From a phage, in the sequence record PZ583739.1: a stretch of DNA of 64,000 nucleotides, one strand, 5' to 3'. This document shows, piece after piece, positions 3,896-14,948 of the stretch (positions are counted from its first letter, which is position 1; the number at the start of each line of letters is the position of its first letter). The notes under the pieces are model-generated. The model was not told the origin of the DNA and did not search any database. It worked only from the letters and a program-made list of their open reading frames with translations. The position numbers and the translations under genes were made by a program.

Positions 3896-5633
3896 GAACT
3901 CCGAACAAACAAGCTTCAGACGCGGTGGACCTAATAAAAAGCTTATCGAAGAATTAGCACCACAAAGGAGGGCGGAAGCCCTCTCTGCTGAACAGAATGA
4001 TGAATTATCGAATCTGAATACAACCCTTACAAATACTCAGGCTGCAACCGAACTTGTATCGGAAGCTATTGAGGATAAGGGTAATCAGATTATTGAGAAT
4101 ATCCAAACCAATAATGGAGTCCTCCAGGATATCAGTGCTGGGGTCGAACTGACGGCCGAAGCCACCGAGAAGACTCAACAAGGGATTAAAAACCTCACGG
4201 ATATTCTCTCGGATAAGCTCGACAAACTCAGTGCAATGATAAGCGGTAAAATAGGCGTCACGTCTCCTGTGGCTGGTTCTGAAAGCCTTAAACCTGTGGA
4301 AAATGCACTACCAGAGCCTGAAGAGAATAAGCCCACAGCGAGCGTTCCGGCGCTCATACCGCCAGAAGAACAAAAGCCCGACGCTGACTTCATTCCGGAA
4401 CCAGAACAGCCAAAAACCGATGCAGAAGGTAAAGAGACTAATACCTGGTCACTTGGTGATAAGCTTGATACCCTTTCGAAGATAACCGAAAAAGGATTTA
4501 AGGCATCGGTTTCTGTTGCTGACCGAATCTCCGGGATGCTGTTCAAATATACAATTACGGCAGCAGCCGAAGCAGCCAAGCTTATTGGTGGATTATTGTT
4601 GTTGGTATTCGGTATCGATGCGATACGAGTTTACTTCCAATATTTCATGAAGCAATTCGAAAAAGGATGGGCCGAATTTAATGATAAGTTCAAAGAATGG
4701 GGTCCGTTGCTCGAAGGGTTAATGACCTGGGCTAAGAACGCTGAAGCTATGTTCAGTGAAAGAAATTGGCTTGGACTGGCAGAAGCTATTATCCGTGGAA
4801 TGGTCAACTTAACGAAGAATATGGCTCAACTTCTTATGCTTGGTATTTCAAAATTAATCTCGGCTATTTTAAGTAAAATCCCTGGGATGGGTGATTTAGC
4901 AGATAATGTGGAAGCCTCAGCTTTGATGTCTTATCAGCAAAATACAGGGGCAACTCTGGATGATGAAGACCAAACCAAGATAGCAAAATATCATGACAAA
5001 CGTTCGGCCGAAGCAATGGAAGCTGCAGAGAAGATGAATAAGAAGTATAAGGATAAACCTGAACTAATTAATCAAGCCGAAAAATATGGTAACCTTACCA
5101 AGGAACAAGCTGACCAGCTTCGCGCGGGTGGGATTGACACAAGCTTCAGAGACCTTCCGGAAGAAGAACGTCTGGACTATTTCAAGAAGCGTGACAAAGC
5201 ACAGGCTGATATTATTCGTTTGACCCAAACTGCTGACAACCTAATGAAGCCAGACGCAACCGATAAAAAGAATGCGATGGAAATGAGAGCTAACATTGAA
5301 AAACAATTAGCTGACCCAGCTATGGCAAAAGGTGGAGCTCCGAAAGACCTGAATATGCGCACCCTGTTGGAAAAACTTGATAAGTCTCTCGAGAAGTTCA
5401 AAGACGAACCGAAAGTTAAACCGCCGGATGTTAAGACTTCTCCGGATGCACAACAAGCTGCGAAGGTTGACGAAGGTATGAAGGCCAAAGAAAATAAATA
5501 CAAGGATGCACCAGCTCAGGCACAAATTAACACGGTCAATAATATTCAGAAGACTTCCAGGACGCAATACAATATGCCTCCTCAAAGTTCAACCCCTGCC
5601 CCTGGCATGAGACAGGCCACGAGAATTAACTAA
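3888..5633 (+). CDS. 29: baseplate hub subunit / tail length determinant gp29
   Basis: 581 aa; coiled-coil and hydrophobic central segment; length and position match T4 gp29. Confidence 0.8.
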   Translation: MNKNSEQTSFRRGGPNKKLIEELAPQRRAEALSAEQNDELSNLNTTLTNTQAATELVSEAIEDKGNQIIENIQTNNGVLQDISAGVELTAEATEKTQQGIKNLTDILSDKLDKLSAMISGKIGVTSPVAGSESLKPVENALPEPEENKPTASVPALIPPEEQKPDADFIPEPEQPKTDAEGKETNTWSLGDKLDTLSKITEKGFKASVSVADRISGMLFKYTITAAAEAAKLIGGLLLLVFGIDAIRVYFQYFMKQFEKGWAEFNDKFKEWGPLLEGLMTWAKNAEAMFSERNWLGLAEAIIRGMVNLTKNMAQLLMLGISKLISAILSKIPGMGDLADNVEASALMSYQQNTGATLDDEDQTKIAKYHDKRSAEAMEAAEKMNKKYKDKPELINQAEKYGNLTKEQADQLRAGGIDTSFRDLPEEERLDYFKKRDKAQADIIRLTQTADNLMKPDATDKKNAMEMRANIEKQLADPAMAKGGAPKDLNMRTLLEKLDKSLEKFKDEPKVKPPDVKTSPDAQQAAKVDEGMKAKENKYKDAPAQAQINTVNNIQKTSRTQYNMPPQSSTPAPGMRQATRIN

Positions 5634-8076: not shown

Positions 8077-10143
8077 CTACGAAAGGAATTTAGGAGGAAT
8101 AGCTTCCAAATTAATACAACTAGCAAGAATACCAAGCCCTTGATTGACTTTCTTCGTTACCCCAGAGGATGCAAACGATGCAAAGTCAACAGATTCTACT
8201 GGCTCTTCTGTTTCCTCGCCCTGATAAACGACAAGCTCACCAGTTTCCATCAACACATCACCATCATAGATAACTGCATTTTCAGCCAGCATTTCGGTAG
8301 TCTGGATATCAGCTTCCAACAGTTTGACGTTTGCGTTTCCTTTATACGATGCATCGGTAATCTTGGTAATCTTAACTACAGTCCCACGAGGAAGAATAAC
8401 TTCCTGCTCGGATGTGTTGTTAGATAATTGACCAGGAAGAATGACGTTAATTAAATCAGCTCCAGAGATTTTCCAACCGACATGCATCATTGCATTATCA
8501 GGATTTGCCCCAGGAATATTAGGAAGCACAATTTCCTCGTCACCCTGGAAAGTGGTTCCATCGCGATAATCCTGATGAACTGCAGCCATAGCAACGTTTG
8601 CAACCCAACCGCCAAAGATAATCGGTTTAAGGGATGTTGATACATAGTTACGGAAATAAAATAACTTCGACTGCTTAATTTTATTAAACGTAGGAACGTT
8701 TAGATATTGACCACGCCATAGAGTAATATCTGGAGGTAGTTTTTGACCAACCTCAAATGCCGAGTCCATCACTTTTATTTTATGTGCAACATCTTTAGCG
8801 CTATTAAGGAATTCAGCTTCTTCCTCGTAATAATTACCCATCAAATAATTGTTGATGTCAATATAGTTAACGCCACAATAGCCCATGATTGTTCCTTTTT
8901 GACTTACGGTAAAACGGGCTGCTTCATTGTAGCTACTAACGAAATTCAAGATACTTTCGGTGGAGTCGTCTGCAAAATCATTAACTGCCGCACGAATTCC
9001 CGCAGTATATTCTTTTTCCCAAAGCTCTGCTGCATATTCGGCTGCATTTAGATTTGGTGGAGCAGAAGCCATTTGTTTTTCGATAAATGCGGCTTTACGT
9101 AGATTAAGAACCTCAGCACATGACTCAGCAAAAATCTGCATCTGCTTCATACTGCCAACCGGAGCACGTTTAAGTTCACGGTGCATGCGATTAAAAATAG
9201 GGTCAGTATCTTCAATACGAATTTCTTCTTTCCACACCCCGTTAGAACGCATAGCATAATCTGCTGCTTTCATACGGAACATCGCATTAGCATCCGATGG
9301 TTTAATAATAGTTTGTAATTCTTTATAATTCTTTATTGGTTCAGCAGTTACCGGTTTGCTAAATTTAGCAGCTTCTGCATCAATTTCATCCCAACCTTCG
9401 GGAACTTCATCTCGAGGTGCATACTGGGCCTGTGCGATAGCTCTGCGACTGATTTTTGTTTTCTGTGCAACAGAAGCATCAGTCTTTTTGTTTGCTGCAT
9501 CAATCAGAATCTCGGCCGCGATTTCTTGGTTGGAAACCTGTGTACCTGTATCTTTATCAGTGAATACATCGCCAACTTTAGTTTCGACTTTTTGATATTT
9601 CGCAGGGACTGGTGGCATACCATCAACCGAAAGCAGGTCAACACCTTTTTTGTACATAATTACGTATGCGTTCTTTTTACCAAGGCCAGAAGCATTCGGA
9701 AGAACACGATAACGGCCACCAGTTTTCATCTGAATCAGTCGAGTCATAATACGAATAACAGCTTGCTCTTGTCCTTTCATCTTTTTGGATGGGAAACGGA
9801 ACAATACTACATCTGGTTTGCCTAGTTTAATGCTTTCCCAGACAGTAGTAAAAATCAGGTTAATCGCATCAATAGGTTTTTCACCTAAACCGCCTTTCAG
9901 AGGAACAGCATGACCGTGTGAAGTACCGGAGAGCAGGAATACCTCAGCAATCGCATCGCCACGTTTATATTGTTTAACAGTTTCTTTGCCCGTGAATTGC
10001 ATCAAACGAGCCATAAGAGAATCTGTACCAGGAACAGCGAAGTGCCACACCTGTGGTACTTTATATTTCGGGTTCATATCAATGACAGGGTAGTTCAGAC
10101 CTTCTGTATCGGTGTCAAAGAGTTCATTTAATTGTTCAGACAT
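8077..10143 (-). CDS. alt: Alt ADP-ribosyltransferase (virion-packaged)
   Basis: 688 aa vs T4 Alt 682 aa; position between gene 54 and gene 30 as in T4; preceded by late promoter. Confidence 0.8.
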   Translation of the reverse strand: MSEQLNELFDTDTEGLNYPVIDMNPKYKVPQVWHFAVPGTDSLMARLMQFTGKETVKQYKRGDAIAEVFLLSGTSHGHAVPLKGGLGEKPIDAINLIFTTVWESIKLGKPDVVLFRFPSKKMKGQEQAVIRIMTRLIQMKTGGRYRVLPNASGLGKKNAYVIMYKKGVDLLSVDGMPPVPAKYQKVETKVGDVFTDKDTGTQVSNQEIAAEILIDAANKKTDASVAQKTKISRRAIAQAQYAPRDEVPEGWDEIDAEAAKFSKPVTAEPIKNYKELQTIIKPSDANAMFRMKAADYAMRSNGVWKEEIRIEDTDPIFNRMHRELKRAPVGSMKQMQIFAESCAEVLNLRKAAFIEKQMASAPPNLNAAEYAAELWEKEYTAGIRAAVNDFADDSTESILNFVSSYNEAARFTVSQKGTIMGYCGVNYIDINNYLMGNYYEEEAEFLNSAKDVAHKIKVMDSAFEVGQKLPPDITLWRGQYLNVPTFNKIKQSKLFYFRNYVSTSLKPIIFGGWVANVAMAAVHQDYRDGTTFQGDEEIVLPNIPGANPDNAMMHVGWKISGADLINVILPGQLSNNTSEQEVILPRGTVVKITKITDASYKGNANVKLLEADIQTTEMLAENAVIYDGDVLMETGELVVYQGEETEEPVESVDFASFASSGVTKKVNQGLGILASCINLEAIPPKFLS

Positions 10144-10201: not shown

Positions 10202-11734
10202 TTATTTTAACCCGGTCTTTGACCAGTCGCCAAATACATCTTCGAATGTGTCTGCATGGTCTTTATCGAAACGGAACCCTTTGATAATCGGCAGGAACAA
10301 TGCAACCGTATTATCTTTACGAGTCTCGGAAGTCAACCAACCATTACATTCACAGTCAGCAATCATTCCAACCAATTCACCTTTACGGGCTTTAACCATC
10401 AAGGCTTCACGGTCCATTTCATGACGCTCATCAATCGGAATAGAAACCCATTTTTTGGTTTTCTTATCTTTAACTTGAGTTGTGTCTTTAAAACCAGAAC
10501 CACAGTTATTTGTAATCTTACCGCAAGAAGAACGAAGCACAACACCGCCAATCTTATTCGGGTCTTTATCGTGCTCGTAATATCCAATGATTTCCATTGC
10601 AATGTCAATTACTTCTTTGAACTTGTACAAGTTCTTTGAGCGCTTGTTTTCCCAAATCGATGCCATGTTCTTAAGGATAATACCTTCAAGACCTTCATCC
10701 ACATATTTCTTATAGATAACCTTCGCTTCATCGAGATTGTTAACAACATGGTTTTCAATCAGAATCATGCGGTCGAAACCATGCAGCACCACGTTATCTG
10801 CAATCATCTTTTCCAGAACAGCAAAACGCACATCGTATTTCAACGGATTGAGAATCTTAACATCAGAATAGACTTCAATCAGTGGAACATAATCCCAAAC
10901 CTGGAATTTCATACAAGCAGCTTCTGTTGCAGAAATAGTTCCTTTCAATGATTTGTTTGCCAGACCATTTGAAAAGGTTCTTGATTCCGCAGTTTCTTGT
11001 GCAGGGGCAATCTCATCTGTATCGTCAAAAAGGAAGCCCAAACCATCATTCTGGGAAGCTATTTTCTGTTCATGATATACTAACTCGCCGTCAATCAAAA
11101 CGCCCTCAGGATGTCTCTCACGCGCTTCACGGGTAGCTTCAATCAATTCCTTTTTAAGAAGGTCAAGCTTGAGGTATTCGTTGCCAGCTCGGGATAACAA
11201 TCGAACATCATCCAACTCATCACCACGAACTTCTGCGAAACACCGAGCGCCGTCGGCTTTCAATTGCGCAAAGGCCGGGAACTTAATGTTCTTGGCAATA
11301 CCGGCTTCATCATAGGAAGAAGCGAGCATCTGCGGTTGTTCAGGAATTAAACCTTTCCAAACCTTATTTGCAATTGATACGGATGCCCCGCATTCCAGGT
11401 CACGCATCATCACACGGCGAAGAACTTCAACATCTGCTTTTTTACCATCAGCAATATAGCCAGATAATTCCTCGATTGCAGCATTACCTGTTAATTTACG
11501 AGAGGCTAATGTAAATTCGATAAAGTCAAGCATATCATCGATATTCAACATGCCAAAGCTTTGAGACGTTGTCCCAGGTTTTGGCCATTTCTTGATATAG
11601 AACTGGATGCCTTTGGAATATGTCAAACGATACACACGTTTGAGGGTTTCATTGTCAGAATACGATTCCAGAATAGCTTGTTTCTCTTTAGTGGAATCGG
11701 TTGCAGCAATTTCATTTAAAATATCTAAAATCAT
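10202..11734 (-). CDS. 30: ATP-dependent DNA ligase gp30
   Basis: Track start is GTG at 11740; ATG at 11732-11734 with SD AAGAGGTGA gives MILDILNEIA...; ligase KADGAR adenylation motif; about 510 aa. Confidence 0.9.
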   Translation of the reverse strand: MILDILNEIAATDSTKEKQAILESYSDNETLKRVYRLTYSKGIQFYIKKWPKPGTTSQSFGMLNIDDMLDFIEFTLASRKLTGNAAIEELSGYIADGKKADVEVLRRVMMRDLECGASVSIANKVWKGLIPEQPQMLASSYDEAGIAKNIKFPAFAQLKADGARCFAEVRGDELDDVRLLSRAGNEYLKLDLLKKELIEATREARERHPEGVLIDGELVYHEQKIASQNDGLGFLFDDTDEIAPAQETAESRTFSNGLANKSLKGTISATEAACMKFQVWDYVPLIEVYSDVKILNPLKYDVRFAVLEKMIADNVVLHGFDRMILIENHVVNNLDEAKVIYKKYVDEGLEGIILKNMASIWENKRSKNLYKFKEVIDIAMEIIGYYEHDKDPNKIGGVVLRSSCGKITNNCGSGFKDTTQVKDKKTKKWVSIPIDERHEMDREALMVKARKGELVGMIADCECNGWLTSETRKDNTVALFLPIIKGFRFDKDHADTFEDVFGDWSKTGLK

Positions 11735-11743
11735 AATCACCTC

Positions 11744-12022
11744 TTAGTCGTTGGCTCTATTATATGCCACATCTTCCAAAAGCAAATCCAGACGTTTGTG
11801 ATAAGTGAACACAAATTTAGTCGCCCCATCTGGTTTCATTTTAGTCATGAAGTGAACATAGATAAATCCTTGCTCAACACATTCCCGCCAGATTGGGTTA
11901 TCCTTGACCGGATTAATATCAAACGAGTAATTATGATTCACATGACGAATAAACTGGTTAACATGACCGTAATCCATCGTGGTGACTGGACCACGGTCTG
12001 AAATAGTATGAACGACAAACAT
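11744..12022 (-). CDS. hypothetical protein (30.1-like)
   Basis: Track ORF starts at TTG; first ATG at 12020-12022 with SD AGGGGG; ATGA overlap with upstream stop; 92 aa. Confidence 0.45.
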   Translation of the reverse strand: MFVVHTISDRGPVTTMDYGHVNQFIRHVNHNYSFDINPVKDNPIWRECVEQGFIYVHFMTKMKPDGATKFVFTYHKRLDLLLEDVAYNRAND

Positions 12023-12846
12023 CAATTGCCCCCTTGTCCGCCGGTCGGTTGATTGTACCAATATTCAATACCAGTACCCACGCGTGGGCCATATTGATAT
12101 GGATATGCTGGATTATAACCAGGAGTCCACGGTTGTCCAGGCTGCCAGCCCTGCTGCATTTGTTGCTGAAGACGGCGAGTTTCACGAAACAGCTCTTCCA
12201 GTTTACGGAGTTCATCTGGGGTGAATTCTGGTTTGACTGGTTCATCTTTGTGTTTCAGTTTAAGCTGTCCGGCTACATCGTCCCAATTAAAAACTTTGGA
12301 AGCTGTTTTAGGAATAGCATCACGTTCGCCGCGGGCCATCCAATAAACCGGGACTTCAAGAATTTCACTCGCATGGTCGCAATGGTGTGCAAGGTCATCA
12401 ATATAACAAATGACATTATATTTGTCTTTTGCCTTCTGAAATAACTCCTCTTTAGAGGCTGTATGGCCGCACATCATCACTTCTTTAAATGCGCCAGGGA
12501 ACAAAGCGTTCAGGTTGAATTGACGATTCAGACGGGCATCAATGGAATCACCCAGAGCCGTAACAGCCACAAAATCATATTGCTCTTTGAGGTTATTAAT
12601 AACCCTTAACGCATCCGTGTAAGGAGACAAATAGCGAATAAAATCTGAACAGTTATATTTCTCAATCAACTGTGCTCCCAACTCTTCATCACAATTGAAC
12701 AGTTTACCAGGGGTCACAAATTTTTCATCCTGAATCATTTTAAGGATATGTTCCAGGGGTAAATTATATTTTTGAGCGAAATAAGGCAAGCCTGACTGCC
12801 ATGACAAACATACGCCATCAATATCTGTTAAAATAACGGGTTTCAT
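12022..12846 (-). CDS. HAD-superfamily phosphatase-like protein with Q/P/G/Y-rich C-terminal tail (30.2-like)
   Basis: 274 aa; N-terminal ILTDIDGV (HAD motif I DxDG); last about 50 aa are low complexity QQQMQQGWQPGQPWTPGYNPAYPYQYGP...GGQGGN. Confidence 0.55.
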   Translation of the reverse strand: MKPVILTDIDGVCLSWQSGLPYFAQKYNLPLEHILKMIQDEKFVTPGKLFNCDEELGAQLIEKYNCSDFIRYLSPYTDALRVINNLKEQYDFVAVTALGDSIDARLNRQFNLNALFPGAFKEVMMCGHTASKEELFQKAKDKYNVICYIDDLAHHCDHASEILEVPVYWMARGERDAIPKTASKVFNWDDVAGQLKLKHKDEPVKPEFTPDELRKLEELFRETRRLQQQMQQGWQPGQPWTPGYNPAYPYQYGPRVGTGIEYWYNQPTGGQGGN

Positions 12847-13301
12847 AATGCATCTCTCAATTGGTTAAGTATGTCAATAAATTCTTGTTCAGTCAATATT
12901 GTATCATGAACAGTAAGGTGGCTCGCCATCGAATGCTTTAAAACTTTGCCCTTTGTAGCTTGTAATGCGTCGCGGAATCCTTTGTTTTGGAGCGCTGCTT
13001 CAAAATAAGCATTTGTATACAACTCTTTCCATGATGCAGAGTATCTTGAAAAGGGAATTCCAAGCCAGAAAAGCGTCCCACGGTCCGCAGCTCTTGCATA
13101 AGCTCTTCCACTTTGCTGGGCGGCCAATCCGGACATCCCAAATATACGTTTTTGTTGTTCATTATTTCTCACCTTGCACCCTTGTAGGAAGCATTCAAGA
13201 CCCCCAAACTGGATACCCTCCATAACAAAAGGCCATTTAGCAAAGTTACTTAATGCACATGATGGCCACGGAAAATTACTTCTGATTTCTAACTCAGACA
13301 T
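12843..13301 (-). CDS. NADAR/YbiA-like protein (30.3-like)
   Basis: First ATG at 13299-13301 (track start is GTG); FPWPSCALSNFAKWPFVMEGIQFGGLECFLQGCK resembles NADAR family signature by eye; 152 aa. Confidence 0.5.
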   Translation of the reverse strand: MSELEIRSNFPWPSCALSNFAKWPFVMEGIQFGGLECFLQGCKVRNNEQQKRIFGMSGLAAQQSGRAYARAADRGTLFWLGIPFSRYSASWKELYTNAYFEAALQNKGFRDALQATKGKVLKHSMASHLTVHDTILTEQEFIDILNQLRDAL

Positions 13302-13506
13302 CTTTGACACTGATAATATCTACATCAGCCCAATGACCATAACCAGGTAGACGGTCTTTAATAGATAATCCACCGTCAGATTTCAGCATTTTAATTGTTT
13401 TAGTATATGGTTCAATATTTCGGGCCCATGGGCTCACGTCTGTTACACGATAAGTAACTTCAACCATTTCTGTGCCCAAAATTTTCTGAATCAGTTTCTT
13501 AAACAT
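13294..13506 (-). CDS. hypothetical protein
   Basis: 70 aa ORF packed in the minus-strand early gene run with short overlaps to its neighbours. Confidence 0.45.
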   Translation of the reverse strand: MFKKLIQKILGTEMVEVTYRVTDVSPWARNIEPYTKTIKMLKSDGGLSIKDRLPGYGHWADVDIISVKDV

Positions 13507-14467: not shown

Positions 14468-14836
14468 TTATGCGACTTTAATCCAATTATCTAAATTTAA
14501 TTCACCCTTAGCTTTCATTTTTTCAATCAAATCATCAGCAGTAGTGCGACCATTTTGATACCATGTAACATCTTCAGAATAACCAGTTTCTTCATCTTCA
14601 TAGGTCTTACAACGAATCTTACCAAGAATCAAAGTTTTCAGTTCGTAGGTATCACCAGTAAAAAAGTTTGTTACCATAATTTTCCAAGAGAAGTCATCAG
14701 AAGGACCTTCTGGAGTCATACAAGAAACGAATTCAAATTGTTCTTTATACAAGTGCCATTGCATTTCTTTAGTTTCAATGGCTTTGTAACCGTCGTGGTC
14801 TTTACCTTTGATGTATGAGTTAAGATTGATTTTCAT
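14468..14836 (-). CDS. hypothetical protein
   Basis: 122 aa; ATG preceded by the conserved leader ...actggagaataaaATG shared with three other loci. Confidence 0.5.
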   Translation of the reverse strand: MKINLNSYIKGKDHDGYKAIETKEMQWHLYKEQFEFVSCMTPEGPSDDFSWKIMVTNFFTGDTYELKTLILGKIRCKTYEDEETGYSEDVTWYQNGRTTADDLIEKMKAKGELNLDNWIKVA

Positions 14837-14877
14837 TTTATTCTCCAGTGTTTTATTGTGTAACTCAGTATGGAATC

Positions 14878-14907
14878 ATTATGCACTGGTCAAACCCTGT
14901 TGTAAAC
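14878..14907 (-). promoter_or_regulatory. early promoter (GTTTAC / CATAAT) with conserved leader
   Basis: Minus strand GTTTAC, 18 nt, CATAAT, followed by the leader gattccatactgagttacacaat...ggagaataaaATG. Confidence 0.5.
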
Positions 14908-14918
14908 CCCTTTATGGA

Positions 14919-14948
14919 AAATAAAAAAGGGACTCCGAAGAGTCCCTG
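14919..14948 (-). terminator. rho-independent terminator
   Basis: gggactc-ttcg-gagtccc hairpin plus T-run on the minus strand after the small ORF 14952..15113. Confidence 0.6.

Follow-up and report, generated by a model that had tools for sequence, protein, structure and literature searches.

The ORF at 12843..13301 on the minus strand of the phage record PZ583739.1 is an orthologue of gene 30.3 of phage T4. Its product, a minimal NADAR protein of 152 residues, would by analogy with its T4 counterpart be a guanine-ADP-ribose DNA glycohydrolase that serves as a counter-defence against DarTG1, a reading to which I assign a probability of about 0.85. T4 30.3 was renamed adfN (anti-DarT factor NADAR) by Johannesman et al. 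(Nat Commun 2025, PMC11825919), and I hereafter use the same name for the gene described here. In the proposed mechanism, the DarT1 toxin of the host would put ADP-ribose on guanines of replicating phage DNA, and AdfN would cut the ADP-ribose-guanine bond and so restore normal DNA. AdfN would then act as an 'orphan antitoxin' with which the phage could grow on DarTG1 hosts. Glu36 and Lys43 would bind and position ADP-ribose, His123 would supply the third residue of the active site, and full activity would require the C-terminal helix. A first-pass annotation of this DNA had seen in the ORF a NADAR-like gene and a candidate for reversal of ADP-ribosylation or for anti-defence. Its main interpretation is supported, but it amounts to established knowledge.

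The window, i.e. the whole 64,000-nucleotide stretch of DNA that was analysed, comes from a T4-like phage (Straboviridae, Tevenvirinae). Its nearest records are those of Gaprivervirus phages, e.g. UPEC01 and PSD2001 (~96% DNA identity), T4 itself being less close. Gene order is as in T4, alt-30-30.1-30.2-30.3-30.4...30.8, with all genes on the minus strand (Table 1), and adfN occupies the orthologous position, flanked by 30.4 and 30.2, with the 30.x cluster upstream of it and the DNA ligase gene downstream. The phage does carry a gene for the Alt ADP-ribosyltransferase, as the first-pass annotation had stated, and the label 'early' that it gave to the region holds for T4, where transcript and proteome data put 30.3 RNA in the early class and detect the protein. 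There is no darT1 gene beside adfN, whose neighbours are 30.2, which encodes a putative HAD phosphatase, and 30.4. The other anti-DarT factor, AdfA (gp61.2), was not found within the window, as expected since 61.2 maps elsewhere in T4.

Table 1. Positions in the window of adfN, its landmarks and the surrounding genes
Feature	Position	Strand	Evidence
alt (ADP-ribosyltransferase)	8077..10143	-	PF03496, E=6.8e-22
gene 30 (DNA ligase)	10202-11740	-	gene order as in T4
gene 30.2 (predicted HAD-family phosphatase)	12022..12846	-	HAD motifs, fold match
ATGA overlap, adfN stop/gene 30.2 start	12843..12846	-	read from sequence; same in T4
adfN (orthologue of T4 gene 30.3)	12843..13301	-	ORF; PF08010 match; identity to T4; NADAR fold
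C-terminal helix, residues 138-151, intact	12849..12890	-	helix in model; end-to-end alignment with T4; lost in RB69
His123 codon, phage-NADAR signature residue	12933..12935	-	invariant in family alignment; 48/49 viral loci
nested ORF 30.3' (74 aa), other frame within adfN	12938..13162	-	PF11097 (DUF2883)
catalytic Lys43 codon (AAG)	13173..13175	-	50/50 conserved; YbiA alignment; K43A impairs T4 AdfN
codon 37, TGC (Cys), beside catalytic Glu36	13191..13193	-	Gly in every other homologue examined
catalytic Glu36 codon (GAA)	13194..13196	-	50/50 conserved; YbiA alignment; E36A impairs T4 AdfN
8-nt overlap, gene 30.4 end/adfN start	13294..13301	-	read from sequence; same in T4
gene 30.4 (70 aa), directly upstream of adfN	13294..13506	-	phrog_2042; 44% identical to T4 gp30.4

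The ORF runs from an ATG to a TGA and its product begins with MSELEIRSNFPWPSCALSNFAKWPFVMEGIQFGGLECFLQGCK. The coordinates and the length of 152 aa are exactly those of the first-pass annotation, which did not give the strand, and the two peptide strings that it quoted as NADAR-like are residues 10-25 and 29-43 of AdfN. If it started at an in-frame GTG that lies three codons further upstream, the protein would have 155 aa; the ATG was taken as the start because it agrees with the T4 annotation. The product matches the Pfam family PF08010 (Phage_30_3) over residues 12-150 (E=7.6e-63, 210.9 bits against a cutoff of 36), and a homologue is encoded in 1510 phage genome records. Comparison of adfN with the T4 gene revealed 97 nucleotide differences, distributed 25/11/61 over codon positions 1/2/3, the pattern expected when purifying selection acts on a protein. 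Judged from these comparisons, the ORF is clearly a real gene, far beyond what chance would produce. Searches with the single AdfN sequence found no match in the PDB or NCBIfam, and in PHROGs AdfN alone matched only a family of unknown function. Nearly all of the phage records examined call the 30.3 product a 'hypothetical protein'.

The relationship with T4 gp30.3 is close. The two proteins align without a gap over their full length with 128 identical residues out of 152 (84%; 93% similar), and they have in common the flanking genes, the start/stop overlaps, E36, K43, H123 and the C-terminal helix. They differ by 24 substitutions, among which are G37C, discussed below, and D28E. The ORF is thus an orthologue of an anti-defence enzyme that has already been characterised, biochemically and genetically, in 2023-2025 (PMC11125620; PMC11825919), and there is nothing new in its biology. 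In T4 and T2, adfN is necessary for growth on DarTG1 hosts, and it is sufficient when supplied to RB69 (PMC11825919). T4 AdfN does not bind DarT1. In vitro it strips ADP-ribose from DNA, and it is impaired by E36A, by K43A and by truncation of the C-terminus (PMC11825919). Of guanine-ADPr and thymine-ADPr, T4 gp30.3 hydrolyses only the former in vitro, and it does not rescue uninfected cells from DarT1 toxicity (PMC11125620). These properties were demonstrated on the T4 orthologue, and the same activity and the same counter-defence role would be expected, by analogy, of the allele in the window.

A genome-wide transposon screen of T4 in the presence of DarTG1 (HIDEN-SEQ, bioRxiv 10.1101/2025.11.20.689424; T4 values taken from the data sheet that matches the DarTG1 comparison) confirms this role of the T4 gene. 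Insertions in 30.3 had a log2FC of -7.25 (adjusted p 0), the values for alt, 61.2/adfA and 30.2 being -0.01, -0.34 and -0.12, respectively. On plain E. coli K-12, T4 30.3 is non-essential according to T4 transposon data. The proposal of the first-pass annotation that the product reverses guanine ADP-ribosylation by DarT and acts in counter-defence is thus what the T4 orthologue, 84% identical, does (PMC11825919; PMC11125620; HIDEN-SEQ). The gene shows this phage to possess an undamaged version of an enzymatic counter-defence to DarTG1 that was already known, and this would help to predict host range or suitability for therapy on DarTG1-positive E. coli.

Membership of the NADAR superfamily had to be established by a less direct route than a Pfam scan. 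According to citations in the 2023-2024 papers, earlier comparative genomics had already placed the 30.3 family in this superfamily. The first-pass annotation had proposed a profile search against the Pfam NADAR family (PF08719) as a check, the lack of a significant match being taken to count against its idea. A direct scan of AdfN with PF08719 gave no match at E<=10, and a scan of 11 family members gave a best value of E=0.047, in 2/11, which is not significant. Since AdfN is assigned to a Pfam family of its own, PF08010, a literal reading of that check would wrongly reject the NADAR idea. A profile built from an alignment of the same 11 family members did match E. coli YbiA, a NADAR protein of solved structure (PDB 2B3W), with E=9.5e-4. 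This match covers the motif quoted in the first-pass annotation, and in it E36 and K43 align with the Glu ('SEH') and the Lys ('AQK') of YbiA. Comparison of the family profile with YbiA by hhalign gave a probability of 89.9% (E=1.7e-6) over residues 17-130. Furthermore, the structural model of AdfN adopts a YbiA-like alpha+beta fold, the top structural match found by Foldseek being E. coli YbiA, and an E-x3-Q-x2-K motif with the catalytic Glu and Lys is present. Profile-profile comparison and the modelled fold thus support the assignment of AdfN to the NADAR superfamily, and the NADAR-like character noted in the first-pass annotation, with the catalytic Glu and Lys inside the motif that it quoted, is borne out. 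The YbiA-like result, obtained on this allele, independently repeats the structural argument published for T4. A lesson for practice is that the 30.3 family escapes the standard Pfam NADAR model, so that it still goes under 'hypothetical protein' in annotation pipelines.

Within the superfamily, two other groups were compared with AdfN. The first is DarG1, the DarT1-associated NADAR (BC4488 family; e.g. the G. lovleyi NADAR, PDB 8BAT). AdfN has no adjacent darT. DarG1 is a protein of 219 aa with an N-terminal extension that the 152-aa AdfN does not have, so that the core alone aligns, and its third catalytic residue is an Asp whereas AdfN has a His (His123). Because of these three features, the lack of a neighbouring darT, the lack of the N-terminal extension and the substitution of His for Asp, AdfN, while probably working like the DarG1 antitoxin, stands outside the DarG1 subfamily. 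The second group is represented by E. coli YbiA (PDB 2B3W) and the Phytophthora NADAR PnNADAR (PDB 8BAU), which belong to PF08719 and are ~20% identical to AdfN. The segment 'LVE...DxxWG' of these two proteins is missing from AdfN, which has 'VLKHSMASHL' and no DxxWG, and for want of this motif AdfN was not classed as YbiA-type. Within the superfamily, sequence comparison thus places AdfN in the phage gp30.3/AdfN branch. The same features bear on the idea that AdfN is a YbiA-type metabolic N-glycosidase acting on riboflavin-pathway intermediates. That YbiA is the top structural match speaks for it, but AdfN lacks the 'LVE...DxxWG' segment of YbiA and PnNADAR and has His123, and its T4 orthologue acts on DNA, so that such a role is hardly credible.

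The active site was examined using 50 independent homologues from viral contigs, 35-98% identical to AdfN. S18, N19, E36, Q40 and K43 are conserved in all 50. H123 is conserved in 48 of 49 viral loci, is invariant in the alignment of 11 family members and, in the AdfN model, directly follows the last beta-strand (120-122). According to the literature on NADARs, the third active-site residue is Glu in the YbiA type, Asp in the DarG1 type and His in the gp30.3 phage NADARs. In the hhalign alignment, H123 lies one column off the Glu of 'LVE' in YbiA, which places the equivalence of the two to within one residue. As for the C-terminal helix, it is intact here, whereas in the RB69 allele a frameshift leads to its loss and to sensitivity to DarTG1 (PMC11825919). 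Two IMG/VR loci (both with a match near 5001-5440) drew attention in this respect. Locus L041 has a Pro in the His123 column and its match stops at profile position 141, and the match of locus L058 stops at profile position 145. From their sequences, these two homologues may be natural loss-of-function alleles like that of RB69.

The one unusual feature of AdfN is its residue 37. The position next to Glu36 is occupied by Gly in each of the 50 viral loci and in every other aligned member and close relative (~70 other homologues), but by Cys here. The nearest relatives, from which AdfN shows just 2-3 differences, have GGC, GGT or GGA as codon 37, and the TGC found here is one G-to-T change away from GGC, at window position 13193. 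A collection of 15 billion proteins contains no copy of exactly this 152-aa sequence. A first possibility is that the gene is indeed an adfN orthologue but that G37C has weakened or inactivated this allele, i.e. that it is a decaying counter-defence gene like that of RB69. The invariance of Gly37 in the 50 viral loci and in all close relatives is in keeping with this idea, as is the existence of naturally decayed alleles (RB69, possibly L041 and L058). Against it, the ORF is otherwise intact and of full length, with only those 2-3 differences from its nearest relatives, and Cys37 could be a sequencing error. Moreover, the residue equivalent to 37 is Gln in PnNADAR and His in YbiA. Since both proteins are active, the fold and catalysis can both accommodate a side chain at this position, and G37C is probably tolerated. 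Decay of the allele is therefore unlikely, although the substitution could be a sequencing error or cause a mild loss of function. A further idea, that G37C is not neutral but retunes AdfN to another substrate or DarT1 variant, or frees it from a T-even helper, is to be regarded as quite unlikely.

Granting that AdfN is an active glycohydrolase, is DarTG1 its natural opponent? Its role might be broader or of another kind, directed at guanine ADP-ribosylation of RNA, at other guanine-specific ADP-ribosyltransferase toxins, or at soluble immune signals derived from ADP-ribose. The T4 NADAR also hydrolyses the G-ADPr made by an unrelated toxin, ScARP (PMC11125620), NADARs have been reported to remove G-ADPr from RNA, soluble ADPr derivatives were proposed as targets of phage NADARs in a 2022 survey (PMC9503650), and the family is found in >1500 genomes of phages that infect many host genera. 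By contrast, the sole in vivo phenotype known is against DarTG1, the gene being dispensable on E. coli K-12, and there is no report of an activity on soluble signals. A natural role of this wider kind thus keeps a small but real chance of being correct.

The first-pass annotation had also offered self-regulation as a function, which would have AdfN reverse the ADP-ribosylation that Alt, ModA and ModB, enzymes of the phage itself, carry out. The proximity of adfN and alt, seen here and in distant genera, and the early transcription of both genes would fit, but the two genes are linked as part of a gene order that is conserved round the DNA ligase gene. The T4 annotation describes Alt, ModA and ModB as RNA polymerase ADP-ribosylases, enzymes modifying a protein, whereas the NADAR activities described in the papers examined here all act on base-linked ADP-ribose (on G, and on C for some NADARs). 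In addition, T4 30.3 mutants have no fitness cost unless DarTG1 is present, and alt mutants are unaffected by DarTG1. This part of the first-pass proposal consequently falls away as very improbable.

T4 AdfN seems to need a further T-even factor (PMC11825919). Gene 30.2, which is translationally coupled to adfN, was therefore examined as a possible helper. In an alignment of 25 homologues, D8, D10, T96, K132, D150 and D151 of gp30.2 are invariant or nearly so and all four HAD motifs are conserved. The gp30.2 model (pLDDT 81.7) matches HAD hydrolases, most compactly 5'(3')-deoxyribonucleotidases, so that gp30.2 is predicted to be a phosphatase of the HAD superfamily. Its C-terminal tail (~residues 200-274), rich in Q, P, G and Y, is disordered, and is variable or absent in other genera. 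The gene is annotated as hypothetical almost everywhere and is non-essential in T4. Three observations led to the rejection of gp30.2 as a helper of AdfN or as its partner in a two-enzyme module: T4 insertions in 30.2 are unaffected by DarTG1 (log2FC -0.12, p 0.61), a 30.2 homologue is missing within 5 kb of the NADAR gene in ~27/36 distant viral loci, and a HAD gene next to the NADAR gene of phage phi-ST2, described below, resembles 30.2 in one motif only. Gene 30.2 overlaps 30.3 in all 13 close loci for which downstream sequence is available, and in 9 more distant loci the two are separated by 0.5-1.2 kb. The pairing of 30.2 with adfN is accordingly treated as inherited gene order and not as a functional module.

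Vibrio phage phi-ST2 (L006, 5007-5958) has a wholly different gene order round its NADAR gene (gp24, gp55 ... gp47, gp46), and the end of this gene is overlapped by a gene for a 5'(3')-deoxyribonucleotidase of the NT5C family, another HAD protein. The latter gene matches the 30.2 profile over the first HAD motif only (hhalign, 57%).

The gene on the other side, 30.4, behaved differently in the T4 screen: its insertions were mildly depleted under DarTG1 (log2FC -1.79, adjusted p 0.014). The simplest reading is polarity on adfN, given that the two genes overlap by 8 nt; alternatively, 30.4 could itself be the T-even helper of AdfN.

A nested ORF, 30.3', lies in another frame within adfN. It stays open both in T4 and in this phage, and it has a match in Pfam (PF11097). 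Changes at third positions of the 30.3 frame number 29 in the 225 nt inside the overlap with 30.3' and 32 in the 234 nt outside it; this comparison with T4 shows no constraint specific to 30.3'. Nor has a 30.3' protein been detected in T4 proteomics. In the light of these two results, 30.3' was rejected as a real gene and is treated as what is probably an annotation artefact.

Two further features of the neighbourhood deserve mention. A promoter scan performed no better than on shuffled sequence (20 found against 17.7 expected), and no argument was based on the promoter or terminator scans. Just upstream of gene 30.8 lie a strong terminator-like hairpin (8 bp stem, T-run) at 14928-14947 (-) and, after it, promoter-like hexamers at 14835-14906 (-); the transcription unit to which adfN belongs may begin there. 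Finally, the identity between the Alt proteins of this phage and of T4 is only ~36%, the values for genes 30, 30.2, 30.3, 30.6 and 30.7 being 67-90%, which indicates that Alt is diverging much faster than the flanking genes or has been exchanged.
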